From NCBI GenBank assembly GCA_964187785.1, contig OZ076410.1, forward strand, positions 15,066,001-15,130,000: a DNA stretch of 64,000 bases. The letters run 5' to 3'. Below are positions 1-58,370 of the stretch, in pieces (within the stretch, counting starts at the first letter, position 1; each line of letters begins with the position of its first letter). Position numbers and translations under genes: made by a program. The notes below the pieces were generated by a model, which did not search any database, was not told the DNA's origin, and saw only the letters and a program-made list of their open reading frames with translations. This DNA is from Amphiscolops sp. MND2022 (lineage: Eukaryota).

Positions 1-324
1 TGGAATGTTAAAAGAACGATATTGATTCAAAAAGGGCACATCTGGATAACTATTTATAAGTTCCTTGCTGACAGTATCAGGTTTGTTTACAACAACGCGA
101 TATCGTTGAAGAGTCGGTGTAGGAATATAGCCTAGCGTGAATTCACCGTCGGTGACATTGTATACTCGGTTTGGGAACGAAATGTCTGTGAGTGCAACTT
201 CCCATTCACTGCCTCTGCCCAAATTGATTGGATTTGACATAAAGTTTGAAAAAAATGCCAGAGTATTATTTGGATAAATGTCCAAACTTGCATTAGACAA
301 TAGATCAATATAAAAGGAAGTCAT
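1..324 (-). CDS. Polinton minor capsid (penton) protein, N-terminal 108 codons, open at window edge
   Basis: Manual translation from ATG at 324: MTSFYIDLLSNASLDIYPNNTLAFFSNFMSNPINLGRGSEWEVALTDISFPNRVYNVTDG..., matching the FY-x-x-L-x-SN-x-S...P-x-NT...F...L...EWEVAL-x-x-I-x-FP motif typical of Polinton pentons; no stop before base 1. Confidence 0.85.
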   Translation of the reverse strand, partial: MTSFYIDLLSNASLDIYPNNTLAFFSNFMSNPINLGRGSEWEVALTDISFPNRVYNVTDGEFTLGYIPTPTLQRYRVVVNKPDTVSKELINSYPDVPFLNQYRSFNIP

Positions 325-381
325 CTTTAGGGAACTGGATAGGAAACACAGAATTTGATTGAATGAGAGTCACTCACTCAT

Positions 382-825
382 TCATTCATCTTCACTGCTG
401 CTGCTGGAGCCAATCATCAGCTTTACCCTCTTTAGATTTTTCTTTTTTGGTTGGCGACAACATTTTTCGTCGTCGTCGACATCCGCCGATGCTATAGTTT
501 CTGCGTTGCTATCTGTATTATCGGATATCGACCAATAAGATCGTAAGGATTCTTCGTATTCTTGTGTTCCCAACTGATTCTCCGTAATGGGCACTAGCGT
601 GTTTTCCAAACGATTGAACTCTCTTCTCAATTCAAGACTCAAACAACCTGGATGTGTGCACTCCATTTCTTTCCAGTCATACGTTTCCAACAACATCAAA
701 TCAACAGAGTATTGGCGGGGCAGTTGTGGCGGACTAGGAGCTGTCAAGTCAAAAACACTTTGGTTGTCAGTGTCACTTTCTCCTTGCTCGTCGTCGTCGT
801 TGTCGTCGTCGTTCGATCTGAGCAT
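382..825 (-). CDS. Acidic low-complexity Maverick accessory ORF (147 aa), possibly the C-terminal part of a frameshifted gene
   Basis: ATG at 825 preceded by an A run; D/E/S-rich with basic PKKKNLKRVK patch; stop lies 57 nt upstream of the penton ATG. Confidence 0.5.
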   Translation of the reverse strand: MLRSNDDDNDDDEQGESDTDNQSVFDLTAPSPPQLPRQYSVDLMLLETYDWKEMECTHPGCLSLELRREFNRLENTLVPITENQLGTQEYEESLRSYWSISDNTDSNAETIASADVDDDEKCCRQPKKKNLKRVKLMIGSSSSSEDE

Positions 826-1025
826 TTTTTTGCAGTATCAACTGTAACTTGAGCACTAATTAAGTGTAATAAATGAACCGGTAGGAGAAAAGACTCAACA
901 ATTTTCCATTCATCATTTGTTGCTGAGTTTTTCACTTCCTTTATTAGGATTGCCGACGCTCCGAAATGTGTCTTGTAGGCAAATATACGTTCGACATCAT
1001 TACGTTGTGTGAATATGTAAATCAT
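744..1025 (-). CDS. Small Maverick accessory ORF (93 aa, MIYIFTQRND...)
   Basis: ATG at 1025 in frame with track ORF 744-1097; protein-like first ~65 aa, then reads a GAC repeat as poly-Thr where it overlaps the 382-825 ORF. Confidence 0.45.
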   Translation of the reverse strand: MIYIFTQRNDVERIFAYKTHFGASAILIKEVKNSATNDEWKIVESFLLPVHLLHLISAQVTVDTAKKCSDRTTTTTTTTSKEKVTLTTKVFLT

Positions 1026-1877
1026 TGTTTCCAACAACAACAAAATTATTCTGAAAACAATAATGTTAAAACTACTGCAAAAAAAAACAACAATCATTTT
1101 GTGTTAAGGAGATTCAGCAGTGACCAGTAGAATGGATGAGAGCTCCTTTCTTGAAGAAGCGTGTTTTTATTTGATGGGAAAAAGTTTATAAAAATTATAC
1201 ATTCTAATGCAAAAATTTTTGCAGTGTGGAAAAAGGGCAGAATTTGCTATGTTACGTTGATCATTGTGAATCTTGTATAGTTGTCGGGTGGTAAACAAGA
1301 GCTACTCTAACTGCTATTCTCAGTCAATAAAGATGAAAACAAAAAAAGAGTTTTGAAAAAAAAATGCAGAACAAAATATTGAGTGAACCCTAGACATGGG
1401 CACATCAAATTCGTCTAATTTTTCGTCCCGAATCTAAATTTCGCATCAAAACGGCATTTCTCGTAAAATTGGAGTTTTTAAAAATTTTTGCCCCATGAGG
1501 GGATTTTTTCCCTTTCGGAAAATAATTTTACAAGAAGGTTTTTTTTCGTCTTTCCAATGATATTTATGACGATGGGTGTTCATGATAGTCATTGACAAGT
1601 GAAATTTCGAGTTTTAAAATTGAAAAAAAATGACTGAAACTAAGTTTTTCCGTGAGTCAAGACCATGCATTCATGTTTAAATTTTAATTCCAACCAGAAT
1701 ATGTCAATGAAAGCGCATTTCAGAATTTTTCATTTTTCTCCATGATAAGGGGTTGTTGACGTTCCAGTTTTAACGTTAAACAAAGTAGTAATTGATTATG
1801 TACAAAACTAGATTCAAATCCAAAAAGTGAGTCTTGAAGAATGTTACTGTTAAATGAAGAAAACTACAACTTAGCTA

Positions 1878-2219
1878 TTAGTTGTTTTTGGGAGACGCCA
1901 ATTGGAGAACATCGAGCAAAGTTCGTTCCAAAAACTGCCTAGTGTAGTGAAATTGGTCAGTCATGTCGACACCTCTGGTACGCATCTTGTGCACGTTCAA
2001 AGATTTGCACTTTTCGAGCTGTTTCTGCAAAATTTTATCGACCCTTTTTTGTTCGAATTGGGAAGAAGTTGATTACGTCTCGCCAGACCAATCACTAGTT
2101 TGACACCTTTCGTTTTGCAAACTCTGTTCCATAGCATTAGTTTTTCCGTAAGGTCTTTAGGTGACAGTGTCGAAACACTATTGTTCCCTTAAACACATTG
2201 TTTCCCAATCAACTATCAT
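1878..2219 (-). pseudogene. Maverick accessory ORF (113 codons) with one in-frame stop
   Basis: AAAAAATG at 2219; MIVDWENNVFKG...SGET*STSSQFEQKRVDKILQKQLEKCK...LASPKNN*; internal TAA at 2073-2075, same frame on both sides. Confidence 0.5.
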
Positions 2220-2264
2220 TTTTTATCGCAAGAAAAAAACTCAATTTTGTTGCTACGGGACAAC

Positions 2265-2286
2265 AGGGTTAGGGTTAGGGTTAGGG
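2265..2286 (+). repeat. Short (TTAGGG)3 telomere-like tract
   Basis: AGGG TTAGGG TTAGGG TTAGGG seen directly. Confidence 0.9.
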
Positions 2287-2484
2287 GCGAAAAAAAGACA
2301 AAAGAGTACAACTAACTTGGTGGCGTTGTGAGCGAATTGTAGAGAATGTCGGGAAAGATAAAGACGAACTGACATCCTGGTCGAGAAAGGGCTCGGAACA
2401 ACAAGGAGTCAAGTGTAGGTTTTGAAAAGTTTTGTTTAGAAGAGGAGGAGGAGGAGGAGGAGGAGGAGGAGGAGGAGTATTCAT
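2281..2484 (-). CDS. Small proline-rich Maverick accessory ORF (MNT + 11 Pro)
   Basis: ATG at 2484, (CCT)n microsatellite encodes poly-Pro; 3' end uncertain (possible GTTAGT...TAG intron). Confidence 0.3.
   Translation of the reverse strand: MNTPPPPPPPPPPPLLNKTFQNLHLTPCCSEPFLDQDVSSSLSFPTFSTIRSQRHQVSCTLLSFFRP
2443..2477 (+). repeat. (AGG)n microsatellite
   Basis: About 11-12 perfect AGG units. Confidence 0.95.
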
Positions 2485-2703
2485 GACGACCGCCACTTTC
2501 GACGAGAATTTGGATATGTTTTTAATGAAATGAATCCTTAATGATTCTACAAAGATTTGAAGCACCAATAACAATCGCGTGCTTTTTTCCAAAAAACCTG
2601 AAAACAGATGATGTGTTATTTCAGAGTCAGAGCACAATAGTTTTGGTACTAGAACAAAACGTGCAAGCACAGACAGAAACAAAAAAACATGCAGATACTT
2701 AAA

Positions 2704-3133
2704 TTAAAAAACATTATTACTACAATAGACATCGTATGATTTATTTACAAGTTTTTTGAGGGCCTGGAGGATACCCGCATCAAGGGTACCCTTCCTCCAG
2801 GCCCTCAAGCACGCGTACACCAGCCCGTGCTGGTGTTTACGTATTTGCCAAAAGGCAAACACATCCAGCACGGGCTCTGTGTCGACCCCGTCAATGTAGG
2901 CTTGGATTCCCTGCAGCAATAAAAAGTGAATTGGTTTTCGTTTCTGAAAGTTGCTTCAGAGAAGTTTTGCAATTAAAATTGTAAAAGATTAAACCTACCT
3001 CCTCTCCGCACATCATTTGCAATACGTCCCAGGTGTCCTGGGAAACCTCAACGAGGCAAGAAGAACGATCTTTATTGTTTGTTACACCCCAACTAAAATG
3101 ATCGATCTTATCAAGATCATACCAAGTGAGCAT
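2704..3133 (-). CDS. Spliced Maverick accessory gene, ~113 aa: exon 3133-2999, 88-nt intron 2998-2911, exon 2910-2704
   Basis: Donor GAG|GTAGGT and acceptor TTTTTATTGCTGCAG|GGA join two track ORFs in phase 0 (...LQMMCGEE|GIQAYIDG...); AT-rich intron between more GC-rich exons. Confidence 0.65.
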
Positions 3134-3154
3134 TTTTTCTATTAGCAGAGGGTA

Positions 3155-3352
3155 TTAGCAGAAGGTAGTAGCAGAGGTAATTTTTGAGCACAGAATGAAT
3201 TTTTTGAGCTCGGTAGGCTCAACCCCTTTTTCGAGACTCCAAGCACCTCCTTCGTTTTTTTCCAGTTTCACTTTTATCTGGGAAACATCAAAGATTTCAA
3301 CCCAGACACAATTTCCATATCTAATCATTTGGAAACTCGGATAAATAACCAT
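3155..3352 (-). CDS. Small Maverick accessory ORF (65 aa, MVIYPSFQ...)
   Basis: AAAATG start; stop only 21 nt before the next ATG (3133). Confidence 0.45.
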   Translation of the reverse strand: MVIYPSFQMIRYGNCVWVEIFDVSQIKVKLEKNEGGAWSLEKGVEPTELKKFILCSKITSATTFC

Positions 3353-3719
3353 TTTCACTTTTTAGGGCTCATAAGACCCGAATCAAAGGCTCCGCTATCT
3401 TTTGAACCAGTTTTCAAAGTGTTGCAGGGTCCACCTTTGTTCCTTTGAAATTCGGAACCCACCAAATTTGAGTTTCCAAGTGATGAATCAAAGAAAAGAC
3501 CGACACTCTGTTAATTGGCATTGTTTTTTTTAGTTATAATTAACAAAAAAAATGTTGCCTTCACAATTCCAAAACAAATTAAAAGGCATTTTGATTGCTT
3601 TTTTTCCAAAAATTTAGCATTTTTTCCCGACATTTTCATGTTTTTTTCAGACATTTTAGGTCATTTTGTCTCTTTACAGAATGTGAAAATTCGGTGTAAA
3701 AAGAAGCTGGGATGATTTC

Positions 3720-4178
3720 CATAAGCTTGTTGGAATAGTTAATGACTGTTTCCATTACGCAAATGAAGGCAATATCAGGGAAATTTGTTCCACAGCAATC
3801 ACACTTCTAAAGAAAGGTAATATAATCTAAGAGCACATTCTTTTCAAAGTTGCTAGATTAAAAGAATTTTTATTGATTCCATTTCCTTTCATCCCATCTG
3901 CGTTCCATTTCCATTCCTAACAAACCACTCCTTCCATTTTTATTACTTTCCAGCACGCCAAGGTAAGGAACTTTCCTTTCATTGCCTGAAATACGAACAA
4001 AAATTTATCGGGCCTGTATTTTGTTTTCGGATTTTGTTCGGCTCTCGGTGAGTATTTTCATATTCGGATACGTCATGTTCGTATCGCAAATATTACGTAA
4101 CGTTTCAGAAAGTTTTGTTGTCCATATTTGGTTACTCACTCAACCCCCCCACCTATAATGCCACGTACATCTACTACT
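3720..4178. repeat. Putative Maverick terminal inverted repeat region (inner boundary unknown)
   Basis: ORF-free segment with pyrimidine-rich TTCCATTTCC-like motifs, C7 run, ending in CTACTACT; partner TIR outside the window. Confidence 0.55.
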
Positions 4179-4964
4179 TAGGCTAGTCTGCTCAATTTAC
4201 ACACTTCTAAGCATCTTGCTAAAAGTTAGCCACAGATTATCGCGTATGGAATGTTTAAAGTTTTTTTTTCATCTTATGGCTCGAGAAAACCTTTCTCTCA
4301 GTTGTTTTTTCTCACCACTTTGTAGCCAAGCCATCAATTCAGCTAAAAAGCTCAAGATTCAGCAGGATAGATCTACCTTTTGACAAGTTCTGCTGTCATA
4401 CATTGTTTTATATTTTCCAATTTGCTTCAATTGCGTTTCATGGTAGATGGGTTGTTTAGGTCATATCGATAATGCAAGTCTTTTTGTTGGTTCTTGGAGA
4501 GCACGAGAAGTCAAAATTTTTAGTTTCTCTGATTTTTAGTTTCCTCATTTTTTAAAAAAAATTTAGCTTCCTCAGTTTCTGGCACATTATAGCAAAACTT
4601 TGATTGACCTACCATGAGAATAGTCTTGTGCTTTGGTTTCAATATTTAAAAATTCGTGTTAACCGTGACAGCTCAAAGAAGTTATTCTCGAATTTTGGCA
4701 TTTTTGTAGTTTTGTAAATTTATGGAACGAATCGTTGAAATAGCTTGAAACTGCAACGAAAGATTCGTAATCACAAGCAAAAGTTTTTTGATATTGTGGA
4801 GACAAACTGATTATGAGTTTCAGAATGTGGGTATTGTATTTATTGGTTGAAAGATTTTTGTGAAAAGTGAAGCAAAATCTGAAAGTCTGACGCAAATTTT
4901 TCTCATCAAACCAGTTTCCCCAAGCTTTAGAGGAGTTAACTATAAAATTCGGCCTTTTTAGGGC

Positions 4965-5867
4965 TCACAACATGTCGCACATAACTGAAGCCCAGCTATA
5001 CATGTTAACATCAGTCAAAGTGGGAAAGCCGAAAAAGCCGCTGACGACGTTATTCTCGTTATTTCCCCAATTGTCCGGTTGTCCAGATCCCCAAAGAAGT
5101 CGTTCCGGTCCGATTACTTCTCCTTCGACAGTTTTCCAAACTTCGGCACTGTCCCTTACTATTCCCAGCCAATGGATCTTGTTTACGAGTCGGTCTCGAA
5201 AGAATTGCAGTTGGTCCATGCTTCCGTCAAGATTCGAGAAGAGATCTCCTCCGAGGTTGATGCAATAATCTCTAGCTTCATTGAACTGCATGACATCATC
5301 AGTGAACCTCACCCACGTTTCTTGTCTTACGGGGGTTCCCGGGATCGCGATGCCTCCATGAGCGACGTCTTTTACCATGTAAAACTCATCTACATGTCTC
5401 CATTCTCCAGGAATGTCGACTATAATGGGATCAGCCCAACGCCATTCCATATCTACACGTTTGTTATTCAAACGGCACACTCCTGAAGGAGCGTCGTCCA
5501 TGGTAGTAGCAAAAACCCCGTGCTCTGAGCACACAGGGACTGATGCTTTCCGCATTCCCACATACTTACAGTTCGGTGCAACTGTTAGCAAAGTTGTTGC
5601 TTGGTAGCTCGAATAGATATCATGAACATTCAACTCACACGTGTCAGCTCCACAGAAGTTGAAAGATCGACACCACTCGTTCTTGTTACAAGCCAAAGCA
5701 CATTTGGTCTCAGAAACGACCACTAAAGATTCCAACAATTCAGCAACAAGTTTTTGCCCTGCGAAAACGTCTTCAAACCCCATTGAATTGACACTTTTGG
5801 GCAATGTTGAGGTAGCATCAACAGTTAAAGCGATTGAGGCACAGCAGAGGATTACGATTGCATACAT
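4965..5867 (-). CDS. Secreted PAN/apple-domain + C-type lectin protein, 300 aa, intronless
   Basis: Hydrophobic signal peptide; PAN pattern C-A-L-A-C...C-R-S-F-N-F-C...C-E-L-N; CTL features F-x-E-A-R-D-Y-C, WLGI, W-x-x-G-QPD-N, terminal Cys. Confidence 0.85.
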   Translation of the reverse strand: MYAIVILCCASIALTVDATSTLPKSVNSMGFEDVFAGQKLVAELLESLVVVSETKCALACNKNEWCRSFNFCGADTCELNVHDIYSSYQATTLLTVAPNCKYVGMRKASVPVCSEHGVFATTMDDAPSGVCRLNNKRVDMEWRWADPIIVDIPGEWRHVDEFYMVKDVAHGGIAIPGTPVRQETWVRFTDDVMQFNEARDYCINLGGDLFSNLDGSMDQLQFFRDRLVNKIHWLGIVRDSAEVWKTVEGEVIGPERLLWGSGQPDNWGNNENNVVSGFFGFPTLTDVNMYSWASVMCDML

Positions 5868-14538: not shown

Positions 14539-17500
14539 CTGAAACATACTAAAAAATCAATTCGTGCAAGAATCGATTCAGGTGAAAACGGAGGCATGCC
14601 TACAAGCAGTTATATTCAAGGATAGCAAAATATAAGTTTCTAACTAAAGTCGATATATTTAAAAAACTTCACGATGACAAAAATTAGGAAAAAATTATTC
14701 ATTAACAATATGGAAAGATCTATCCAAATGATATCTGAGTTTGTTTTCATCTTAAAAGTGATCGATAATTAGGTTTATGGCGCCAGAATATTATGGTGCC
14801 TCTAACATGCCAGATTGAAAAAAGGAGTCTTCGCATATAAAACGTAAGAATATTGTGCGCTAGCTTCGTTTGAAAATGAGAGAGAAAATTGCCGGGCCCC
14901 AGAAAAAAGGAAACCGTGCCAACGGTGATTGCTTCGAATATCCAAAAAACTATTCACAAGTGAAAACCTGCTCTGGTTTCTTTAATGATCCGTTGAAGTT
15001 AACATTTGGTTATGGAGAGAGTAATGCCGAAATATAGCTAGTGGCTAGGATATAAAGTGGTATAGAGAAAAAAAATTCACGGTGCAAGGGATTCGAACCA
15101 GTAACATCAGGGACGGAAATCAGAGTATCTAACCACGTTTTCTAGAGAAAGTACCATCATAAAAACACAAAACGTGGCTTCCAACCAGCAATCAGGGGCA
15201 TAGCGTTCTTGCATGTATGGAATGGTAAAGATAGAGGAACTGCGACTTACAACGTAATACTCGCACCAACTCTCCTCCGCAGGTTTGTCACCCATAAACA
15301 ACTTGAACTCCTTCTTGCAGAAACCTTCCCACAGTTGATCAGTATCATCGATAAGGTGCTAAAGAGGAGGATGAAAGTTACATGGATGAATGTAGAAGGA
15401 TGGAACGTGTCATGCTTTTCATTCAAGACACAGCATGGCAGATGAAGACAACTAACCGGATTGTGAGACTCAATTCTCATCAATTGAACAGGAGTACAGC
15501 GATCTAATACTCCCTTGAGAACGAAATAGGGCAGATCCCCGACTTCATCTATCAAGTCAATGTGGTTGCACAAAACTTTCAGACACAGGTCAACCAAACG
15601 AGGAACGCCATCTGCAAAATAATGGTTCAAGGCAGGCAGGGATGGGCAATCAATAATTGATGAACCAATTAATTGCAATAATTGACTTTCAATAAATGAA
15701 CTGGCATTGTTTCCAATTGCAGTTAATTGATTGGTACTTGACAATAATTGCAATTAATTGGAACTCAGCTTTAACTCGTTTTTCAGGTAATTATGTCTAA
15801 AAAACTGCAAGATGTTTGCATAAAATACTTTGAAAAAGTGCAAGGGATTGAAAAACTGTGGAAGTGCAAGTGCGGAAAAGAATTGAAACAACGTAAAGGC
15901 ACAGGATGGTCAAATTTGCACACCCATATTAAAGTTCAGCATGGAATACACGAAAACTGTGCTGACAAGAATCAAAAAACAATCACACCTTTCGTGTTGA
16001 TTAACAAGCAAGCCCTGAATATATACTCTTGGCTTAGGTGAATATGCAATGATTTAAAGCCGTTCAGTTTTGTTGAAAGTGAAAACACCAAAGGTATACG
16101 AATTTGAAAAAAAATTCGAGAAACACTTTCATGAAGTGCTTGAACCTTGTAAGGGAAGCCACGGAGAAAATTTCATAGCAGCTTCCATGCAAATTTGCTC
16201 TGATGTTTGATGAACTCGACAGAAACAATGAATACATTGTCAAGGATGCAAGCATTGTTAAAAGCTGACACTTCGAAAATGGTAATAATATAAATTTTGG
16301 AAGGCCGAGAAAATGAGATGAAGATGACCGAAAAAGTTCAATGTAGACGCTTGAAAAAAGTGGAGGATGATGACTCGGATTTTGTCACTCAAGAGAATGA
16401 GGATGATTTCGCTTCAGCTGTACTACAAAAACGGCGGAAGAGGTGCGGAGATTCATATATATAATTCTATTAGCTCCTTTTTGCGAGCAGTTAACAATCT
16501 TAGTTGTTCAAACAAGATGAGATGACGCAAGTTCTCATGAGTTCAATTAAGCCGTTCTGTTTCTTTGATAAAATCAGTCAAGTTCTTGCTTTGGAGAGAA
16601 TATATATTCAAGTGATTATCGACAACGAATCACCCCCGAGCATCTCGAAGAACAGTTGTTTCTGAAAGCCAACGCTCAATTCTGGAACATTAATACTGTT
16701 ATTGATGTGTTGAATAAGTGACCCTAATTTCAGTCTGACACATGTTATTTTTTTCCAATTAATTGCAATAATTGATTATATTGATTGGTTTGGTCTCCAA
16801 TTATCATTCATTAATTGGTTAAATTTTTTCAGACCAATTAATTGGAATGAAAAATTGCCCATCCCTGAAGGCAGGGGTGTTCAATATTTTATTCGCCTAG
16901 AACTATGTTATTGCCTAGAAATCAATGATTTCCTTCAGGGCGGAAAAAGTAATTTTATTTTTTGCTAAAATAAATTTTATTCTCAACGAAAAACGGATAT
17001 CAACAAAAACTTGAATTATGCTCTGAGAATCACGAACAGACCAATATTTTTTGTTAGCCATAAAAAAAATTGCGACTCAAACAAAGTTCAATGGGCTGAG
17101 TTTTTGGCGGTAATCTCCCATGACATGTTTTGCTTTAGAAAAATTTCAATACGGTTAACAATTATCGAATTTAATTGGCTGACATGTTTGTCATATTCCT
17201 GACATTTAAAAGAAGAATTTTCCGTTGTTGCATAATAAGTTGAACTTTGAATCATTAAACTTTCACACCTTTGTTTATATTCGTATTGACTAATTTGTTG
17301 TTTTGGTCGCTTTCTCACTTGATCAAGTCCACCCACCAACACCGGGTGCCTCAAACTAAGTACTGAATTAACATCTGAAACATCAGTTCTTCTACAATAG
17401 AAGCGAAACAAAAGATAACTCAGAAGTCAGGAACTATTCACGATGAGGAAAATAGACTTTATGACTTGGTGACCAGGAGTGGTGCCATCGAGCAGAAGAA

Positions 17501-20500
17501 CTCCGCATCTGATGAACCTGGATATCTAGTTTTTGGAACTCCTGCTTGTATTGAACTGATGGTCTAACCCTCCGAAATATTGTGGACTGCAGGCAGTCAT
17601 CACGAACTGATTAGGGTCCTCTTCGAAGAACAATAATGAAATTGTCAGAAAACAAAACAAAGATGGAATTTTTGGAGGTACCAAGGGGCTGTGGCAGGAC
17701 CCTTACATTTCGGCTGATGGAAGGGCTGACTGGTCAAGAATGAGCAAGGCAGTTCCAATTGGAGAGACTGGAAGAGAAGGGTTTCTTGATTGGTTCTTTT
17801 TGATAGCACCCAGCTGCACCACAATTCTGTTGAAAGATCTTGGGCCTGGGAAACCCACAGATGGTATGGTTAAAGCCGTTCAGTTTTGTTGAAAGTGAAA
17901 ACACCAAAGGTATACGAATTTGAAAAAAAAATTCGAGAAACACTTCCATGAAGTGCTTGAACCTTGTAAGGGAAGCCACGGAGAAAATTTCATAGCAGCT
18001 TCCATGCAAATTTGCTCTGATGTTTGATGAACTCGACAGAAACAATGAATACATTGTCAAGGATGCAAGCATTGTTAAAAGCTGACACTTCGAAAATGGT
18101 AATAATATAAATTTTGGAAGGCCGAGAAAATGAGATGAAGATGACCGAAAAAGTTCAATGTAGACGCTTGAAAAAAGTGGAGGATGATGACTCGGATTTT
18201 GTCACTCAAGAGAATGAGGATGATTTCGCTTCAGCTGTACTACAAAAACGGCGGAAGAGGTGCGGAGATTCATATATACAATTCTATTAGCTCCTTTTTG
18301 CGAGCAGTTAACAATCTTAGTTGTTCAAACAAGATGAGATGACGCAAGTTCTCATGAGTTCAATTAAGCCGTTCTGTTTCTTTGATAAAATCAGTCAAGT
18401 TCTTGCTTTGGAGAGAATATATATTCAAGTGATTATCGACAACGAATCACCCCCGAGCATCTCGAAGAACAGTTGTTTCTGAAAGCCAACGCTCAATTCT
18501 GGAACATTAATACTGTTATTGATGTGTTGAATAAGTGACCCTAATTTCAGTCTGACACATGTTATTTTTTTCCAATTAATTGCAATAATTGATTATATTG
18601 ATTGGTTTGGTCTCCAATTATCATTCATTAATTGGTTAAATTTTTTCAGACCAATTAATTGGAATGAAAAATTGCCCATCCCTGAAGGCAGGGGTGTTCA
18701 ATATTTTATTCGCCTAGAACTATGTTATTGCCTAGAAATCAATGATTTCCTTCAGGGCGGAAAAAGTAATTTTATTTTTTGCTAAAATAAATTTTATTCT
18801 CAACGAAAAAAGGATATCAACAAAAACTTGAATTAAGCTCTGAGAATCACGAACAGACCAATATTTTTTGTTAGCCATAAAAAAAATGCGACTCAAACAA
18901 AGTTCAATGGGCTGAGTTTTTGGCGGTAATCTCCCATGACATGTTTTGCTTTAGAAAATTTTCAATACGGTTAACAATTATCGAATTTAATTGGCTGACA
19001 TGTTTGTCATATTCCTGAGATTTAAAAGAAGAATTTTCCGTTGTTGCATAATAATTTTAACTTTGAATCATTAAACTTTCACACCCTTGTTTATATTCGT
19101 ATTGACTAATCTGTTGTTTTGGTCGCTTTCTCACTTGATCAAGTCCACCCACCAACACCGGGTGCCTCAAACTAAGTACTGAATTAACATCTGAAACATC
19201 AGTTCTTCTACAATAGAAGCGAAACAAAAGATAACTCAGAAGTCAGGAACTATTCACGATGAGGAAAATAGACTTTATGACTTGGTGACCAGGAGTGGTG
19301 CCATCGAGCAGAAGAACTCCGCATCTGATGAACCTGGATATCTAGTTTTTGGATCTCCTGCTTGTATTGAACTGATGGTCTAACCCTCCGAAATATTGTG
19401 GACTGCAGGCAGTCATCACGAACTGATTAGGGTCCTCTTCGAAGAACAATAATGAAATTGTCAGAAAACAAAACAAAGATGGAATTTTTGGAGGTACCAA
19501 GGGGCTGTGGCAGGACCCTTACATTTCGGCTGATGGAAGGGCTGACTGGTCAAGAATGAGCAAGGCAGTTCCAATTGGAGAGACTGGAAGAGAAGGGTTT
19601 CTTGATTGGTTCTTTTTGATAGCACCCAGCTGCACCACAATTCTGTTGAAAGATCTTGGGCCTGGGAAACCCACAGATGGTATGGTTAAAGCCGTTCAGT
19701 TTTGTTGAAAGTGAAAACACCAAAGGTATACGAATTTGAAAAAAAATTCGAGAAACACTTTCATGAAGTGCTTGAACCTTGTAAGGGAAGCCACGGAGAA
19801 AATTTCATAGCAGCTTCCATGCAAATTTGCTCTGATGTTTGATGAACTCGACAGAAACAATGAATACATTGTCAAGGATGCAAGCATTGTTAAAAGCTGA
19901 CACTTCGAAAATGGTAATAATATAAATTTTGGAAGGCCGAGAAAATGAGATGAAGATGACCGAAAAAGTTCAATGTAGACGCTTGAAAAAAGTGGAGGAT
20001 GATGACTCGGATTTTGTCACTCAAGAGAATGAGGATGATTTCGCTTCAGCTGTACTACAAAAACGGCGGAAGAGGTGCGGAGATTCATATATATAATTCT
20101 ATTAGCTCCTTTTTGCGAGCAGTTAACAATCTTAGTTGTTCAAACAAGATGAGATGACGCAAGTTCTCATGAGTTCAATTAAGCCGTTCTGTTTCTTTGA
20201 TAAAATCAGTCAAGTTCTTGCTTTGGAGAGAATATATATTCAAGTGATTATCGACAACGAATCACCCCCGAGCATCTCGAAGAACAGTTGTTTCTGAAAG
20301 CCAACGCTCAATTCTGGAACATTAATACTGTTATTGATGTGTTGAATAAGTGACCCTAATTTCAGTCTGACACATGTTATTTTTTTCCAATTAATTGCAA
20401 TAATTGATTATATTGATTGGTTTGGTCTCCAATTATCATTCATTAATTGGTTAAATTTTTTCAGACCAATTAATTGGAATGAAAAATTGCCCATCCCTGA

Positions 20501-23500
20501 AGGCAGGGGTGTTCAATATTTTATTCGCCTAGAACTATGTTATTGCCTAGAAATCAATGATTTCCTTCAAGGCGGAAAAGTAATTTTATTTTTTGCTAAA
20601 ATAAATTTTATTCTCAACGAAAAACGGATATCAACAAAAACTTGAATTATGCTCTGAGAATCACGAACAGACCAATATTTTTTGTTAGCCATAAAAAAAT
20701 TGCGACTCAAACAAAGTTCAATGGGCTGAGTTTTTGGCGGTAATCTCCCATGACATGTTTTGCTTTAGAAAATTTTCAATACGGTTAACAATTATCGAAT
20801 TTAATTGGCTGACATGTTTGTCATATTCCTGACATTTAAAAGAAGAATTTTCCGTTGTTGCATAATAATTTGAACTTTGAATCATTAAACTTTCACACCT
20901 TTGTTTATATTCGTATTGACTAATTTGTTGTTTTGGTCGCTTTATCACTTGATCAAGTCCACCCACCAACACCGGGTGCCTCAAACTAAGTACTGAATTA
21001 ACATCTGAAACATCAGTTCTTCTACAATAGAAGCGAAACAAAAGATAACTCAGAAGTCAGGAACTATTCACGATGAGGAAAATAGACTTTATGACTTGGT
21101 GACCAGGAGTGGTGCCATCGAGCAGAAGAACTCCGCATCTGATGAACCTGGATATCTAGTTTTTTGGAACTCCTGCTTGTATTGAACTGATGGTCTAACC
21201 CTCCGAAATATTGTGGACTGCAGGCAGTCATCACGAACTGATTAGGGTCCTCTTCGAAGAACAATAATGAAATTGTCAGAAAACAAAACAAAGATGGAAT
21301 TTTTGGAGGTACCAAGGGGCTGTGGCAGGACCCTTACATTTCGGCTGATGGAAGGGCTGACTGGTCAAGAATGAGCAAGGCAGTTCCAATTGGAGAGACT
21401 GGAAGAGAAGGGTTTCTTGATTGGTTCTTTTTGATAGCACCCAGCTGCACCACAATTCTGTTGAAAGATCTTGGGCCTGGGAAACCCACAGATGGTATGG
21501 TTTCAGTAGCAGCAAGCCACATATTGCTTGTGGGATGATCGGAGAACAGAATCCGTTGAGAAAGTCATCTCAACCAGAGGGGAAGTTTTTCAAAGAGTGA
21601 AAGTGTCATATTCCTGACATTTAAAAGAAGAATTTTCCGTTGTTGCATAATAATTTGAACTTTGAATCATTAAACTTTCACACCTTTGTTTATATTCGTA
21701 TTGACTAATTTGTTGTTTTGGTCGCTTTCTCACTTGATCAAGTCCACCCACCAACACCGGGTGCCTCAAACTAAGTACTGAATTAACATCTGAAACATCA
21801 GTTCTACAATAGAAGCGAAACAAAAGATAACTCAGAAGTCAGGAACTATTCACGATGAGGAAAATAGACTTTATGACTTGGTGACCAGGAGTGGTGCCAT
21901 CGAGCAGAAGAACTCCGCATCTGATGAACCTGGATATCTAGTTTTTGGAACTCCTGCTTGTATTGAACTGATGGTCTAACCCTCCGAAATATTGTGGACT
22001 GCAGGCAGTCATCACGAACTGATTAGGGTCCTCTTCGAAGAACAATAATGAAATTGTCAGAAAACAAAACAAAGATGGAATTTTTGGAGGTACCAAGGGG
22101 CTGTGGCAGGACCCTTACTTATATATATGGTCTATTTACACCCCTTGATGCGGGCAATGTTAAGCAAATGATTTATCAAAAACATTTATGGGTGAATAAT
22201 ACCACTGATTTATATCGTGTTTGTTAGTTATTCAAATCTTCCGCAGTTTCCGATGAATTCTACTAGCTTCGCACAGTTTGTCAGGTCATAGAGGTTGAAG
22301 TTTTCGGTCGGAAGATTTCTCGGTTCCCATATTTTGCAACTGAATAAAAAGTGAATTGCAGTTTCTTCGGTTCTTTTACATGAGCATAGAGGACTGGCTG
22401 TTAGGCTTCGGTTGTATGCAAAATTTTTCAGTGAGGGGTTGATGTCCAGGAGTACTTCTATGACATGCCTCATGAGCTCTTTGGTTGTGGATATCTTGGT
22501 CAAAACGGGGTCGCTTTCTACTCGAGGGACAAGATGTTTGAGATTTGTATCGGAGTCCGGATATTGCCATCTATAATTCCATTGCCTAAGAATGTGATTT
22601 CTACTCGTTTCTTCATCGTAGCTTAGCTTGTCGCGTAGGTTTAATGTCTTTCTGCAGTAAAATTGTCTCAACGTATTTCTATGGCCCAAAAGAAACGCTA
22701 AGTCTGATTCATTTTCTATTATTTGATTTGTCATATGATCATTGCTTTGTAGAACTTTAGTTAAAAATTTCGATGATATGTTTTGGCACAGTATGTCTAT
22801 AGGTGGAATACCCAAAAGAACTTCAGCTGCTGCCGAGTTTGCATTGTATCTGGTTTCCATTATGCTGCGGGTAATCGTATGTTGAAATTTAGTTAATTTA
22901 GTAATGTTTTGACTCGCCCATACAGGTGTGCAGTATAGTAAGGCCGGTAGGATCAATGTTTTGTACATAACTGTAAGGGTGTGTCTCGATAGACCCCATT
23001 TGCCTGTGCAATGATATCTCAGTTCTCTCCACCTGTTCAGGCAACGTGCTGTTGTTGAATCTGTGTGTTGTTTAAATGAACATTCGTTGTCTACGATCAA
23101 GCCGAGAATTTTCGTTTGGTATTTCACTTCACATTTCTCTGTTCCCAGATGAATTTTGTGGTCCCAGATATCCAGTGGGTGAATGGGCATTATCTCGGTT
23201 TTCAATCCGTTTATTTGAATTCGCCATGTGTTGCACCATGTTTTCACCGAATTCAGGTTTTTCTGAATTTTTTCGCAGAGGGAGGCTTGTGTTTCTGCAG
23301 ACACAAGGATCTGAGAATCGTCCGCATATTTGAATTTAGTTCCATCAGTATTCTTCAACATTTCTGCGATGAAAAATATGAAAAGCAATGGTGAGAGTAC
23401 GCTTCCTTGCGGAACTCCCTGTTTTGGCTTAATGGGCGAGCTTAACACTCCATCCAGTTTTGTTCGTATCAGTCGGCATTTGAAAAAATTCCGAAGGAGA

Positions 23501-50356: not shown

Positions 50357-51287
50357 TACGGCGACAACTCATATCAATTCGAAAAAGCGACAACTCATAT
50401 TAGGCGACAACTCATATCAAATCGAAAAAGCGACATCTCATATCAAGAGACAGCTCATATCAATTCGAAAAAGCGAAAACTCATATCAAGGGACAACTCA
50501 TATCAAGAGACAACTCATATCAATTTGAAAAAACGACAACTTATATCAAGCGACAACTCATATCAGGCGACAACTCATATCAATTCGAAAAAGCGACAAC
50601 TCATATCAAGCGACAACTCATATCAAGAGAAAACTCATATCAATGTGAAAAAACGACAACTCCTATCAAGCGACAACTCATATCAGGCAACCACTCATAC
50701 AAATTTGAAAAAGCGACAACACATATTAAGAGACAACTCATATCAATTCGAAAAAGCGAAAGCTCATATCGAGTGATAACTTATATCAATGCAATGAAAA
50801 CTCATATCAGAAAATTAAAATCTGTTTAACAAAATTTAATCCAAATATTTCATTCGATAATTAGAGAAATTAGATAACTGATAAGTAAGTATTGGAAATT
50901 ATCATATTGTAACAAGATTTCATAGGAAATGTCAATGTAATTTAGATATTTTTAATTGCAGTTGATTATAAGCCGTTCTTGAAGTAAAATTTAGGCATTT
51001 GTAACCTATCGTCAAACTTCATTGATTTGTCGCTTTTTCCTAAGTGATATGAGTTGTCGCATGATATGAGATGTCGCTTGATATGAGTTGTCGCTTGATA
51101 TGAGTTGTCGCTTGATATGAGTTGTCGCTTGACATGAGTTGTCGCTTGATATGAGTTGTCGCTTTTTTCTAATTGATATGAGTTGTTGCTTTTTCCTAAT
51201 TGATATGAGTTTTCGCATGATATTAGTTGTCGCTTGATATGAGTTGTCGCTTGATATGAGTTGTCGCTTGATATGCGTTGTCGCTAT
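50357..51287. mobile_element. Foldback-like element: two inverted arrays of a ~17-bp GCGACAACTCATATCAA unit around an AT-rich spacer
   Basis: Plus-oriented array ~50360-50810, minus-oriented array ~51013-51285. Confidence 0.8.
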
Positions 51288-52406: not shown

Positions 52407-55400
52407 CTTGGCATGATACTTGTAAAAATGATTGTCATTCTTTTATATTTTTGGAAAGAGAATCTGTAAAAGCATGGGACACAAAAGAATAACTACCGCC
52501 AAAAGTAGTCGAAACAAGTTCTACCAGCTTTTGTTGAAGTTCTGCAGTTTTCATCATCTTCTTCCAAGTTTGGATTCTCAATTCAATAAAATAATTCAAA
52601 TTCTTCCCCAGCAAACATAACTTGTTTTCTACTGAGAGAAATGGGAAATTAGAGAAACCGAAGATCAAGTAGACTGGCAACTCCATCTCCTGACAGAGAA
52701 GCAAATGAAACCAGAGTTGATTCCTCAGAAACAAGTAATATAATATACTAATCTGAATGTTCAAGAAAGTTTAAATGAACCTTCTTTGGAAAACCAGCTA
52801 AGAGAACTTGGTCATATTAGTGACTAGATTCAAGTTTGGACACAGATTGTTGAAAAGAAAAACACTGAGAGAATAGAAAAAATGAAAGAAGAGATGGATA
52901 AAAAAAACTTGAAGCAATTTTGAAAGAGATAAAATACAACAAAAGTGTGTCAACAGTAACAAACCCAAGATCAGTTGTTAATTAGATACAAGAACCACAA
53001 CCTTCGGGATCCAGAATAGATCCGTCTATAGGAGTTCGCGCATCTGATAACGAAAATTCGGATTCTGAAACTGACGATTATCATCTAAGAGCTTCGAAAA
53101 TGAACGACTTAAAACATCCCGCAAGACCATTATTCCAAACTGTATCTGACGTGGACGTAACAATACATTTGAAAGAAGAATCAGACGTAGAGGATTTTTA
53201 CATAGTGAAAGGAGTCAACTGACAACTCCATAGACAAAGCTCACAAAACGGAACGACACAATAAGAAGATCAATATCAGATCAAAAATTGTCGAATTTGA
53301 CAACAAATCCACCTGACCCAGTTAAACAGATTGCACTAGCAATAGAAAAACTAGCCAACAAAAACTCACCACAGTCTTTATTTCATCCTAAAAACACACT
53401 CACATTCAACGGGACAAACGAGAAAAATGAGAAATCCGAATACTTTGAGAATTTATCTCACACAACACTCCGAATGCAACCAATGCAGATTGCCCCAAAT
53501 TAGCAGAACGGCGTAAACTGGAGGAAGACCCGGACGCAGCAAAATGACAAAACTGCAACACACCAGGTCATGAAGAAGAAAACTGCTACTTCAGCGCCAA
53601 CATGGAAAACCGACCACCGAAGTGGAAATCACGGAGCCCAACAAAAGGTTATCGAAGCATACAAACAAGCTCGAAACCCGATAAAACCAAAAACTAGAAT
53701 CGCCACGCTTTTACATAAGGTCACCACAAAAACCAAACTCTGCAGATGACTGGCAGCATCCGCCGAGCCCAAAACCTACGCATACTGCAGTGCATGAAGC
53801 TGACTCAACAACACAAAATCTTCAACACCTAACACCAGAAGCTCAATCTGAAGACATAGATGAACTCTTGTATGACGCACCAGACAACTACTTTACCAGT
53901 TTCTTTGTTAGGTTCATTTGCAAGCAACTTGATTTTATTGAGGTCTTGTTCGGAGATTGCACTTGTGAGGGCTCCGGTGTCAATAAGATCATCAAGTGTG
54001 AGTTTCTCGGTGGACTTCGAAAAACTCACACTTGATGGTCTCATTGACACCGGAGCCCTCACAAGTGCAATCTCCGAACAAGACCTCAATAAAATCAAGT
54101 TGCTTGAAAATGAAGCTATCAAAGAAACTGGTCATCCACCAAACTTCCAAATCATGGTGGCAAATGGAAAATTAGAAGTCCCAATCGGCACAGTACTACT
54201 CGAATTCGAAGTGGTTGTCTTCATGTTGAAAGAAAACTTCATTATAATGAAAAACCTACCAAACCCACTTATCGGGTTGTGCTTCCTACGAAGGAATAAT
54301 GCAGTTTTTGATGTCAACCAAGGCATCATAGCCTTTCCCAACCTTTCAATGCAACTCAAACGAGACACCCAAACATCAATCCGACCCGCAACACCCTTGT
54401 TTGTAGAAAATACCTACACGTTACGGCCAGGCGAAACACTCGCCATTGCAAGCAAAATGGTACATTGGATGGATCATGACGCAACTGGAATAGTCACCCC
54501 ATCTCAACAATTTGAAAATCACGACAGCATATCTATCACATATCTATCATCGTTAAGTACCGTTAACTGTTAACAACATTGCCATCGGATACCAATTCAT
54601 TAACTTTTCCGAATTACCATACACAATCACACTTGACAACTTTTTAGCGGATTTCAAGATTCTCACACCAGAACAAATCAAACATATTCAGCCAGGCGAT
54701 CCAGCGTTATTATCCTTCATGATACAACATGAAGAAATAACGGAGGTCTACACAAATGAACTCCTAAAGGTTCCACAACCAAATTCAGAACACGAAACAT
54801 ACTGGTTCCCAAAACCCTGAAGAACCAGGCGATCCAGCAACATATACCCCAATCCAGGAAACCTATCTACAATGAACTTCTCGAACTTAAAGAAACTAAA
54901 CTTAAAGAACTCGAGAAACTAAACCCACATGATAATGAAACTTCCAGAAAAGACTTTCTTTCACGTTTTGATTGGTCTGATACAACACTCAACCCAGACG
55001 AACGGAAAGAAATCGAAGATATTCTCATCGAGTTCCACGATTTTTTTTGCTAGACATCGTCTGATATCGGCATAAATCGTGACTTCAAAGTAAAACTCAC
55101 ACCCAATGATGTCAAACCTGCTTACAGCCAAAGTCTGCCAACTCCATTTAACCTCAAAGATGATATCACAGTAAAACTCGCACTCCGACACAAGTATGGT
55201 ATCATTACAGCCCTACGCTTCTCCAAAGACGCAAGCACAATCTTTGCACAACGCAAACCCAATGGGCGTCTCAGACTTCTAGTCGACCTCCGAAAACTTA
55301 ACCGAATCTCATTACCAAAGATTACGTCAATAACAACCACCCGGTAAGCACCTTATCTGATGCAGCCCAACACATGGCAGGGAAAAACTATTCTGCGAAT

Positions 55401-58370
55401 TGGACTGCTCTTAGTCTTACCACTGCCTCCAAATGGCAGACCACCAATCTATTCAAATGCTTGCTTTTAATTTTGCAAGTAGAACATTCGCTTATCGACG
55501 GCTTTCCCAGGGTCTCAGCAGATCACTTTCTGCATTCGCAAGCTTCATGAGAGACTACCTGGATAAGGCAATTAAAGCAGACCAATTCGCCTATTATGTC
55601 GACGACATCGGCATAGCAGCTAATGACACAAAAAAATTGTGTACAAACATCAGAACAGCCTTCGAATGCAAAGAATGCATATGCAATACGGGATTGAAAC
55701 TCTTCATGTCGAAGTGCCATTTTGGAGTTAAACAAGTTGACTTCCTGGGACGTACAATCACACGAGATGGAGTTGCCCCACAAGCCGACAAAGTAAGACT
55801 TCCCCACAAAGCTTCGTTTCCCTAAATGAAAAAAGGCATTACAGAGGTAGATCGGATTTTTAAAATATTACCGAAACTACATTCCACACCTTTCAGAACG
55901 GCTCACCCCGTTTTTCAAACTCCCTAAAGAAACTTCCAAGTTTTATGTTCCAACAAATTTGGTAGACGACTTCGCAAACCTGAACAAACTCCTTAAAAAT
56001 TCTGGAACAACCACTAACAAAACTCATTAGTTATGTGTCAGAGCAGCTGCTGGATATGCAATTATGCTAGAAGATGACCCGAACCAAAAGCTTCAACCCG
56101 AACTCAAAACATATGCACCTATAGCAAAAACCGAACAAAAACTTTTAACCCAACTCAGACTAAAATGTCAATTTATGCGGAAGAATTCCTTTCCATATAT
56201 TTCGCATTTGTTCAATTGGGACACCTTATGTGGGGAAGCACTTTTCCAGTAATCGTGTTCCCCGACAACCGTTCAGTAACTGGATTTTGTAAACAAAAAT
56301 GATCTCCCAGCACTTTGGAACGCTTGCGATTATGTATTGCAGTACAATTTCGTTATGGCCCATGTTGCTGGTTCAATGAACACAGCCTAAGATTTTTTAT
56401 CCAGAACAGAAGTAGATCCATCAGAAAATCTTGAAATGACTATTCGCAACGATATTCACACACAAGCAATTGAAGTGAATATCCAGTCAACAGGCATCGT
56501 CGAAGAAGAACAAATCTACATTCTCCCAGACGATGAAATTGACGAAAATCAACTTTGAAAAACAAAACGAACGAAATCAAGCCCAAACTGAAACCTACAA
56601 CGATCCAGGAAATGCTGTCTCTGAACTACAACAATTTCACAAACCGACATCAAGGTTGATTACGGTATCATCAGTATCGTATCAGTACCGTATCAGTACG
56701 GTATCATGTTTTGACGAGAATGAACTGTCATCAGACTACCGATACCAGCACTACTTACAAAACATAACAAGAATAGAGAATAAACAAGAGGTCCTACAAG
56801 GAAATATTATACGGATACTTGAACAGTATCTAAATACCAAATCCTCCTTCGAATCCAACCAATAGATGAACTTCTTCAGGCCCTGCATGGTCATAATTCA
56901 AACCATCCAGGTATCACCAAGGTGATACAAGAAGCAAGACAAAAAATTACTACCCATTTATAGCTAAATACAACGAAAAATGGGTCAGTAATTGTCGAAT
57001 TTGTATTCAAACAAAACGAATTAACAACGAACTCCTTAATTGTCCAGAATGGGATCTCGGTCAGGAAGACATCCTACAAATGGATACTTTACAAAACATC
57101 CCCCCGAGTGGAGGCTTTGACCATATCATCACTGCAATGAACGTCTTCTCGAGATACTTGTTTGCTTATCCCATAACCCGCATCACTGCGACAGCAGTAT
57201 CTAGAGTCATCATGGATATACTATGCAAACACACCTACCTACCAACAACAATAATCACGGATTTAGGAACCCAATTCAATGCACAAGTAACTCATGAAAC
57301 CGCTGCAGTGCTTGGAATTGAGCTGAAACATGCAACAATGAAACATGCCGAAGCAATAGGACTCATTGAGAGAACCCATGCATCAGTAAAAACACACCTA
57401 AAAGGTGCAACAGGCGAGTTTAGGAACAACTGACATAAAAAAATCCCTTTGGCAATCTTTAATCACAACACCATATACCATGTATCACTCGGTTGTGGGC
57501 CTTCACGAGTCTTCCATGGTCGGATACTTTATATTTTCCTAGACTATAAACTTGGATATAATCCTAACCCGAGATATCAACCACAAACTGACATAGCTGA
57601 AGAAATCCATAAAAGGATGAAAATTCTTCTCGACAAAACAAAGAAGAATATCATGCAATCTTATCTCAAGTATAAAGCCTACTATGACAGAAACGCAAAA
57701 GCAGCACCGCTTGAAACAACGGACTATTGTTACAATCTCAATCCAAAAGCTGATACACAAGCAACAAAAATACCATTCCGAGAATTCAGATGGTGTGGCC
57801 CATATAAGGTAGAAAAAATGCTCCCTATCAATAACTTTATTGTCCGGAGACTTGGAACTAACAAGACGCAACTATTACACAGTCTTCGTCTGCGAAAATT
57901 CACTCCACCGCCCCATTAGCAGACATTTTTGTCCGTGAAACCGATTGGCAAAAAGTTGACGAAATACCTATAGCAAATGATGATCTCTATGCCCAATATG
58001 GAACACGAATTTTTGTTCAAACCCCTTCGATGACGGTCCTTTAGAGCATTCACAAAATACTGAGGACACAGAACACGTCCCAAATCAAAGACATGAGGAG
58101 AACTGCCCTCCTTCCCCAGGATCTTCAGAAAAGAGTAGACCACTGAACGTGAAGAAAAAAATTACAATGAAGTTCCACACGAAACTTATGATGTTGAGAC
58201 AGAAAATTCCTAAAAAACACCAAAAAAGTACACTAGATATACGAACTCAAAAAACCCCAGAAAATTCTGAAAAAAACCCATAGAAAGAAGAATCCATAAA
58301 TACTCGTGGTGAAAAAAAATAACCTACGTCCTAACCCTAACCCTAACTACTGAGACTCTTACAGATACTA
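52407..58370 (+). mobile_element. Decayed Ty3/gypsy retrotransposon gag-pol
   Basis: Gag remnants; protease LIDTGALTSAI; RT LDCS..YH, YVDDIGIA; RNase H; integrase PPSGGFDHIITAMNVFSRYLFAYP, ITDLGTQF; GPY/F-like FRWCGPYKV; ends NLRPNPNPNY; gypsy domain order; candidate LTR end TGACA-CT-TGG at 52402-52411. Confidence 0.9.
53895..54132. repeat. Inverted duplication (hairpin) of the gypsy protease active-site region
   Basis: ~115-bp arms 53895-54009 and 54018-54132, about 6 mismatches, 8-nt loop GTGGACTT. Confidence 0.95.

Follow-up and report, generated by a model that had tools for sequence, protein, structure and literature searches.

The DNA analysed here is a 64-kb stretch (the window) of Amphiscolops sp. 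MND2022, contig OZ076410.1 of assembly GCA_964187785.1, positions 15,066,001 to 15,130,000. Its first 4178 nucleotides (nt), the region under study, whose minus strand points inward, probably belong to one copy of a multi-copy, penton-encoding family and form its terminal part, namely the right end of an integrated Maverick/Polinton. The Polinton/Maverick-type identity with a penton gene is well supported and an origin within the Polinton class is hardly in doubt; that the element is an autonomous Maverick ending at 4178 is held with less, though still favourable, confidence. The genes for pPolB, integrase, ATPase, protease and major capsid protein would then lie to the left of the window.

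If the element behaves like known Polintons, its replication would be protein-primed and start at the ends, its insertion would depend on an rve integrase and produce a 6-bp duplication, and host RNA polymerase II would transcribe it; it may also be packaged in a capsid with the penton protein at the vertices. The penton gene, the conserved gene of about 213 amino acids, a conserved exon of 45 codons and a conserved double hairpin all face inward, on the minus strand. The element itself is of an ordinary kind, since animal genomes often contain Mavericks that have penton genes, accessory regions and AGT ends. The family seems to comprise something like a hundred diverged copies, and the poorly described accessory region can therefore be tested by comparison of copies.

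Penton gene and identity of the element

1–324, minus strand: penton (minor capsid) gene, 5′ 108 codons; the gene runs off the window and is identified through protein P0001

The minus-strand frame at 1–324 is open to the window edge, as an earlier sequence-only reading had stated, and its 108 amino acids are 100 % identical to the start of P0001, a protein of 299 amino acids from a sibling copy on another contig. The fold was judged on this sibling. Its AlphaFold2 model, built from a 119-sequence alignment, is of high quality (predicted local distance difference test, pLDDT, 90.8; predicted template modelling score, pTM, 0.86). Foldseek places the mavirus penton first (E 2.6e-13), followed by Sputnik and the adenovirus penton bases, and all of the 40 matches listed at E ≤ 0.001 are mavirus, Sputnik, adenovirus or PBCV-1 entries. 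With VIA, the vertex proteins of PBCV-1, fowl adenovirus, mavirus and Sputnik reach Z 12.7–14.3 and unrelated folds at most 5.6. The pentons of mavirus (6g41), Sputnik (3j26), adenovirus (8roq, 1x9p) and PBCV-1 (8h2i) share the jelly-roll and its inserted domain across all 299 amino acids, at a sequence identity of 8–14 %; this likeness of fold alone does not show that virions are formed. The Atlas neighbour is a cluster labelled Sputnik V18/19 minor capsid (0.98; family carried by 26 % of members). A penton profile matched the L075 protein with an HHalign probability of 100 (E 1e-41), and a profile of six penton relatives found 8,273 cluster representatives at E ≤ 0.001. The gene thus called a penton by the sequence-only reading, which was prepared to give up the call if pentons failed to match, is indeed of the single-jelly-roll type that marks Maverick/Polinton elements (Eupolintoviridae), its matches being the mavirus, Sputnik, adenovirus and PBCV-1 pentons.

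Searches with other resources were less productive. Pfam gave 0 of 8 assignments at E ≤ 0.001 for the penton family and four stray single-member matches among 119 sequences, searches of PDB sequences gave no significant match, and scans of IMG/VR found no relative of the penton or of accessory gene 1. Gene context was available as 55 open reading frames (ORFs) from 8 of 80 metagenome loci with a penton relative. In seven of these eight, the ORF immediately upstream of the penton match is an rve integrase; in the eighth, upstream DNA is missing. pPolB is found in two, adenain in three and a packaging ATPase in three. The element type proposed from the sequence is borne out by this gene context together with the sequence and fold matches of the penton and the L075 profile match. 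Two observations on relatives may be added: in the sibling copy P0005, the reading of gene 1 continues directly into the penton, as might result from an internal deletion in a copy that has decayed, and in the distant relatives P0009 and P0010 (416 and 471 amino acids) the N-terminal jelly-roll motif is seemingly present twice.

It is very unlikely that the element is, instead of a Maverick proper, an endogenous virophage or a Polinton-like virus lacking the pair of pPolB and rve. The mavirus and Sputnik pentons are the best Foldseek matches and the Atlas neighbours are mostly labelled as giant-virus or virophage clusters; yet no solved Polinton penton is among the Foldseek matches to compete, the sequence relatives with context carry an rve integrase and some of them pPolB, and the end motif is of the animal Maverick type.

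Three observations weigh against an autonomous Maverick. When 1,592 ORFs of related loci were compared, no core gene besides the penton was found in 330–4400; in the same comparison (0 of 1,592 matching) the integrase is absent from its usual place before the penton; and just 7 of 31 fetched members of the penton clusters are full-length. The integrase must therefore be elsewhere or missing, which keeps alive a second explanation, that the family consists of Maverick derivatives, non-autonomous or capsid-only, which retain ends, penton and accessory genes and borrow polymerase and integrase from a helper. The lack of an integrase upstream of the penton, present in 7 of the 8 relatives scanned, and the high copy number fit such a derivative. 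Still, Mavericks differ in gene order (Barreat and Katzourakis 2021, PMC8097293; here and below, comparisons with published work refer to excerpts of the sources), just 4.2 kb are visible of an element that typically measures 12–25 kb, and the penton substitutions are more conservative than in neutral simulation (p < 0.05 in three of four comparisons with relatives 74–78 % identical, which also served as a control for gene 1). A derivative of this kind is on balance unlikely, and the autonomous Maverick is preferred. The copy as assembled is not intact, since one of its genes is broken; it is at least partly decayed, or a homopolymer sequencing error is present.

Copy number and host DNA

With 96 and 115 distinct sequences in the two penton clusters closest to it, the family is multi-copy on the count that the sequence-only reading had proposed as a check. 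All listed cluster members are on ENA contigs of 16 kb to more than 800 kb. Taking penton, gene 1 and gene-2 region together, the homologs are spread over 108 distinct contigs, told apart by size, of one or several assemblies. When contigs are matched by size, 13 of 32 penton contigs and 6 of 10 contigs of the gene-2 region recur among those of gene 1; these parts therefore travel together.

The flank holds host-type genes and retrotransposon-like ORFs, as would an interspersed multi-copy insertion in a eukaryotic genome, the setting of a Maverick/Polinton. Beside the element is a PAN/C-type lectin gene (4965–5867) which is single-copy (a cluster of one member on one contig). Elsewhere, too, the window resembles animal DNA; it contains a TXNDC17-like thioredoxin, a fragment of Elongin A and ORFs that are LINE-, Copia- and Gypsy-like, the retrotransposon names being taken from reading the translations.

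The probable right end

4161–4178, minus strand: probable right terminus with (AGT)2 end motif (from sequence; motif after PMC8097293)
4179–4184, plus strand: candidate 6-bp target-site duplication TAGGCT (sequence only)
3155–3367, minus strand: stretch conserved among copies, probably non-coding (its ORF lacks a protein-like substitution pattern)

Family DNA can be traced to at least 3367 and the single-copy host gene starts by 4965, and the end of the element therefore lies between them. The sole ACTACT in this interval is at 4173 and fits the (AGT)2//(ACT)2 ends of vertebrate Mavericks (PMC8097293). The motif at 4173–4178 faces inward, and the (AGT)2 or (AG)3 end that is looked for in a Maverick/Polinton is thus present. 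The terminal 18-mer occurs once in the window. The longer, 8-nt form of the motif, CTACTACT, occurs three times in 64 kb, with about 0.08 expected in the 1.6-kb gap. The hexamer AGTAGT/ACTACT is weak evidence alone, because it occurs 25 times in the window, 16 times as ACTACT. An end at 4178 is probable, not proven. The AGTAGT-type terminus claimed earlier for this position therefore holds with regard to the inward motif, the unique 18-mer and the adjoining TAGGCT, and not through its hexamer alone.

It is quite improbable that the hexamer stands at 4173 by chance and that the element ends elsewhere between 3367 and 4965. Such an end is favoured by the 16 ACTACT hexamers and by the fact that 3368–4178 carries no family evidence; against it stand the right orientation of the motif and the rarity of the 8-nt form, whose only site in the allowed gap is this one. 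The terminal 279 nt fold no better than shuffles (z −0.3), and the single match of the 18-nt terminus in IMG/VR does not extend into real similarity and is put down to chance.

Inside the proposed end, the ORF 3155–3352 was considered as a gene and rejected: it is well conserved among most copies, without a protein-like pattern (p < 0.05 in 0 of 7 siblings, 5 of 7 below the neutral mean), and the 3′ part of 3155–3367 is read in different frames in different copies. The stretch is probably regulatory DNA, which might be a promoter or an inner terminal inverted repeat.

Accessory gene 1

382–1025, minus strand: accessory gene 1, about 213 amino acids in unbroken siblings (62 homologs, alignment, model, motifs, substitution test)

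The ORFs 744–1097 and 382–825 are halves of one gene starting at 1025, as shown by the alignment of homologs. Mutation or a sequencing error in the homopolymer run 825–831 has disrupted the frame of the copy studied here. Both halves are in one frame in 33 of 98 fetched homologs; 22 of the 98 start at an internal methionine, which may be the choice of the gene caller or the same break. Relatives at about 60 % identity were found on short contigs. The substitutions are more conservative than in neutral simulation in all six comparisons, with p < 0.05 in two, in a test that is somewhat biased by local alignment and related siblings.

The predicted protein consists of a four-strand sheet with a helix, an acidic linker with LPRQYS, a small helical domain, a basic cluster and a serine-rich acidic tail. 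LPRQYS is present in 18 of 18 sequences, the basic cluster in 17 and the Ser/Thr-acidic tail likewise in 17. Basic cluster and tail suggest a nuclear phosphoprotein, and a nuclear location is fairly probable. The Rb-binding Oncoid of adintoviruses, defined by LxCxE with a CK2 site, CR1 and paired CxxC (Starrett et al. 2021, PMC8502044), was considered for this protein and rejected (LxCxE 0/18, CR1 0/18, CxxC 1/18).

The structural model is weak as a whole (pLDDT 54.7) and better for residues 1–50 (71–78), which form four strands followed by a long helix. The predicted topology of residues 1–73 fits the four-strand sheet with a long helix of PUR, PC4 and Whirly domains (3n8b, 2gia, 5a4n, 6ycs), at Z values of just 3.1–4.3 and with no match in sequence. 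Structure prediction, proposed by the sequence-only reading as a check, has thus yielded a modelled sheet and helix, and no family. Two results speak against the likeness: the top VIA row, the Pur-alpha protein of Borrelia (Z 4.3, root-mean-square deviation 3.7, 69 aligned residues), is tied with unrelated folds, and Foldseek against PDB and BFVD returned nothing at E ≤ 0.001, which does not show a new fold. Homologs of MRP1/2 and PC4 stand at VIA Z 3.1–3.8 among unrelated rows, and Atlas gave no usable match for residues 1–75. A PUR/PC4-like N-terminal domain is accordingly an unlikely, if serious, candidate on the model. The favoured guess for the protein is a phosphorylated regulator, located in the nucleus, that binds nucleic acid.

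In adenovirus, strand-displacement replication employs a DNA-binding protein, and the orphan protein could be a single-strand binder for replication of that kind. A literature search on PC4-like or single-stranded DNA-binding proteins in Polintons found nothing relevant.

As a separate observation, a strong splice-acceptor-like site is present at 1051–1060 (minus strand), 26 nt upstream of the start of gene 1. In P0244, a distant relative, translation from an upstream start gives TFQIVVGT-M at this site, which suggests that the site is conserved.

Accessory gene 2 and the hairpin pair

2999–3133, minus strand: exon 1 of accessory gene 2, 45 codons that diverge fast among copies (7 homologs)
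2911–2998, minus strand: predicted GT-AG intron, 88 nt (splice ends, conserved Val codon with GT)
2704–2910, minus strand: predicted exon 2, 68 codons and stop, in phase with exon 1 (open frame, weak third-position bias)
2756–2882 (2817–2882 and 2756–2808), minus strand: two tandem long hairpins, 57 % GC, candidate small-RNA precursor or mRNA structure (folding energy)

A search over 2894–3352 found 10 proteins with 33 members. Exon 1 has 11 invariant residues, with seven siblings at 53–84 % identity, and in each of the seven comparisons the substitutions lie on the conservative side of the neutral mean (p < 0.05 in four). G[DE]E-V is kept in all eight aligned sequences, and its Val codon contains the GT donor; divergent copies lose similarity past this codon and soon reach a stop. 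The predicted AG acceptor at 2911 is compatible with two of the three siblings that reach it, and a frame open over the 68 codons of exon 2 is expected in 1.9 % of 5000 shuffles. The gene is probably spliced, with a predicted protein of 113 amino acids, and a small host-interaction protein that evolves fast is somewhat favoured as the product of the spliced transcript. A coding exon 2 has to be set against three findings: the acceptor AG looks changed in the sibling P0301; an AATAAA at 2745–2740, 34 nt before the stop of exon 2, would cut the frame if used; and the third-position bias, from two sibling copies, is weak and not significant (p 0.08–0.10). With regard to Oncoid motifs, LxCxE is present in 0 of 8 sequences and the looser [ML]xCx[DE] in 5 of 8.

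Within the predicted exon 2, and missed by the sequence-only reading, are two long hairpins, 8 nt apart, hairpin A having a loop of 4 nt. On the minus strand the pair folds with −90.1 kcal/mol (z −7.7, reached by 0 of 200 shuffles), on the plus strand with z −8.0, and it is the sole stretch with z below −3 among the folding windows over 1–4275. Sibling differences avoid the stems, in P0298 with 5/30 in stems and 10/22 outside (p 0.03) and in P0300 with 3/20 and 11/18 (p 0.006); these two siblings are not independent and were read off-frame from proteins, so that compensatory changes are not readable. Seven stem differences can be explained by one base, one site being counted twice; four of them keep a G-U pair in minus-strand RNA and three break a pair. 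The pair has the long, stable hairpins with conservation in the stems that are asked of a microRNA precursor, but with the very short loop of hairpin A and the close spacing given above. No Rfam family reached its gathering score for the hairpins, and none of the 46 matches of a 16-nt hairpin arm in IMG/VR extends into real similarity, so that they are regarded as chance. A function of the hairpins as RNA is marginally favoured; that they are microRNA precursors is doubtful.

The stretch 2704–2910 could alternatively be a non-coding structured RNA within the spliced transcript, its open frame being incidental, which is possible though not favoured. The avoidance of stems in P0298 and P0300, the G-U pairs kept by four of the seven one-base differences (three break) and the poly(A) signal before the stop point in this direction. 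Against this, exon 1 is followed in phase by 68 open codons, a run that few shuffles yield, and 13 of the 16 differences explicable at third positions would be silent. A coding second exon remains the preferred prediction.

Ten microRNA matches have been described in genomes of protist Polinton-like viruses and virophages (PMC12220804), and the idea of small RNAs is thus not absent from print. A literature search for element-encoded hairpins or microRNAs in Polintons gave none on topic by title or start of the abstract. The hairpin pair could be an element-encoded source of small RNA, and together with the gene of 213 amino acids it is the main lead of this work. That the lineage both encodes its own small regulatory RNAs, as a two-hairpin dumbbell in a spliced fast-evolving gene, and carries a PUR/PC4-type single-strand binder directly ahead of the penton is improbable; if true, this would be a module for gene regulation and replication not described for Polintons. 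Either a small-RNA source or a single-strand binder would add to the case for Polintons as regulated viruses.

Extent of the accessory region

The accessory cassette announced by the sequence-only reading is real, and it comprises about two genes plus non-coding DNA instead of many small genes. The roughly 3.8 kb of small co-oriented ORFs that had been seen there did not stand: two of these ORFs are one broken gene, and supported coding sequence amounts to 986 of the 3854 nt of 325–4178 (about 26 %). The small minus-strand ORFs in 1101–4178 are near chance in number, with 7 that start at ATG and have at least 40 codons against 4.0 ± 1.7 expected (7 are reached in 8 % of 500 resamples). Exact protein look-up found 2 of 10 ORFs, both singletons; the miss of 744–1022 is void, as this query was entered without a start codon, and the other misses mean just that the exact protein is not on record. 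The sole ORF on record within 1100–2700 is the singleton 1446–1592, and 1100–2700 has no copy evidence. Pfam gave nothing for the small ORFs, and neither gene 1 nor gene 2, searched as profiles, had a match in the 1,592 ORFs of related loci.

Some further features of this region were noticed. On the minus strand at 1881–2137, overlapping frames of 46 and 64 codons, without a Pfam match, meet near an A-run, possibly a third, frameshifted small gene. At 3636–3806 (minus strand) an acceptor-like site is followed by 56 open codons beginning with a Cys-rich patch; an exon here is possible and unsupported. A (GAG)12 run lies at 2442–2477.

Comparison with known elements

Vertebrate-type Mavericks/Polintons (PMC8097293) share with the element the (AGT)2 end, an inward minor capsid gene and an accessory region between end and core, as well as many decayed copies, with 100–290 copies in some hosts. 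Their module is described as integrase, minor capsid, PW, major capsid and protease; here, in contrast, an orphan gene of 213 amino acids precedes the penton, and the accessory genes have no match among related loci. Nematode Mavericks (Widen et al., bioRxiv 10.1101/2022.07.12.499685) likewise have a variable region of 2–5 kb beside the terminal inverted repeat and intron-containing genes. Their cargo is reported as host-derived proteases and kinases next to the integrase, whereas the genes here belong to no known family and AT-rich sequence makes up most of the region. Lineage-specific genes with introns, in a terminal region of a few kb, have thus been described for Mavericks before (PMC8097293; bioRxiv 10.1101/2022.07.12.499685). 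Adintoviruses, or Eupolintoviridae (PMC8502044), are also associated with animals and have single-jelly-roll pentons and unassigned conserved accessory genes; of their PLA2X, gasdermin and Oncoid signatures none is present in the accessory region here. For context, invertebrates can carry high loads of such elements, which make up 4.5 % of one acoel assembly (PMC6451197); corals are reported to express capsid genes (PMC11131425), and introner-derived introns are reported in eupolintoviruses of dinoflagellates (PMC12166617); general features of Polintons are given in bioRxiv 10.1101/2023.08.22.554363.

Other features of the window

At 16054–22241 a near-identical unit of about 1,816 bp occurs three times beside the Elongin A-like gene, and duplications of 2.1–2.8 kb are found at 28–32, 35–40 and 41–45 kb next to N gaps; both the repeated unit and the duplications are possibly assembly artefacts. 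At 50361–51285 a 17-bp unit is arranged in two opposite blocks about 250 bp apart, with long imperfect inverted arms, resembling a foldback or miniature inverted-repeat transposable element. An inverted repeat of 115 nt (95 % complementary, 8-nt spacer) lies at 53895–54132 within a Gypsy-like protease region. Short runs of the telomere type (TTAGGG)n are present at 2269–2286, inside the element, and at 58335–58346.

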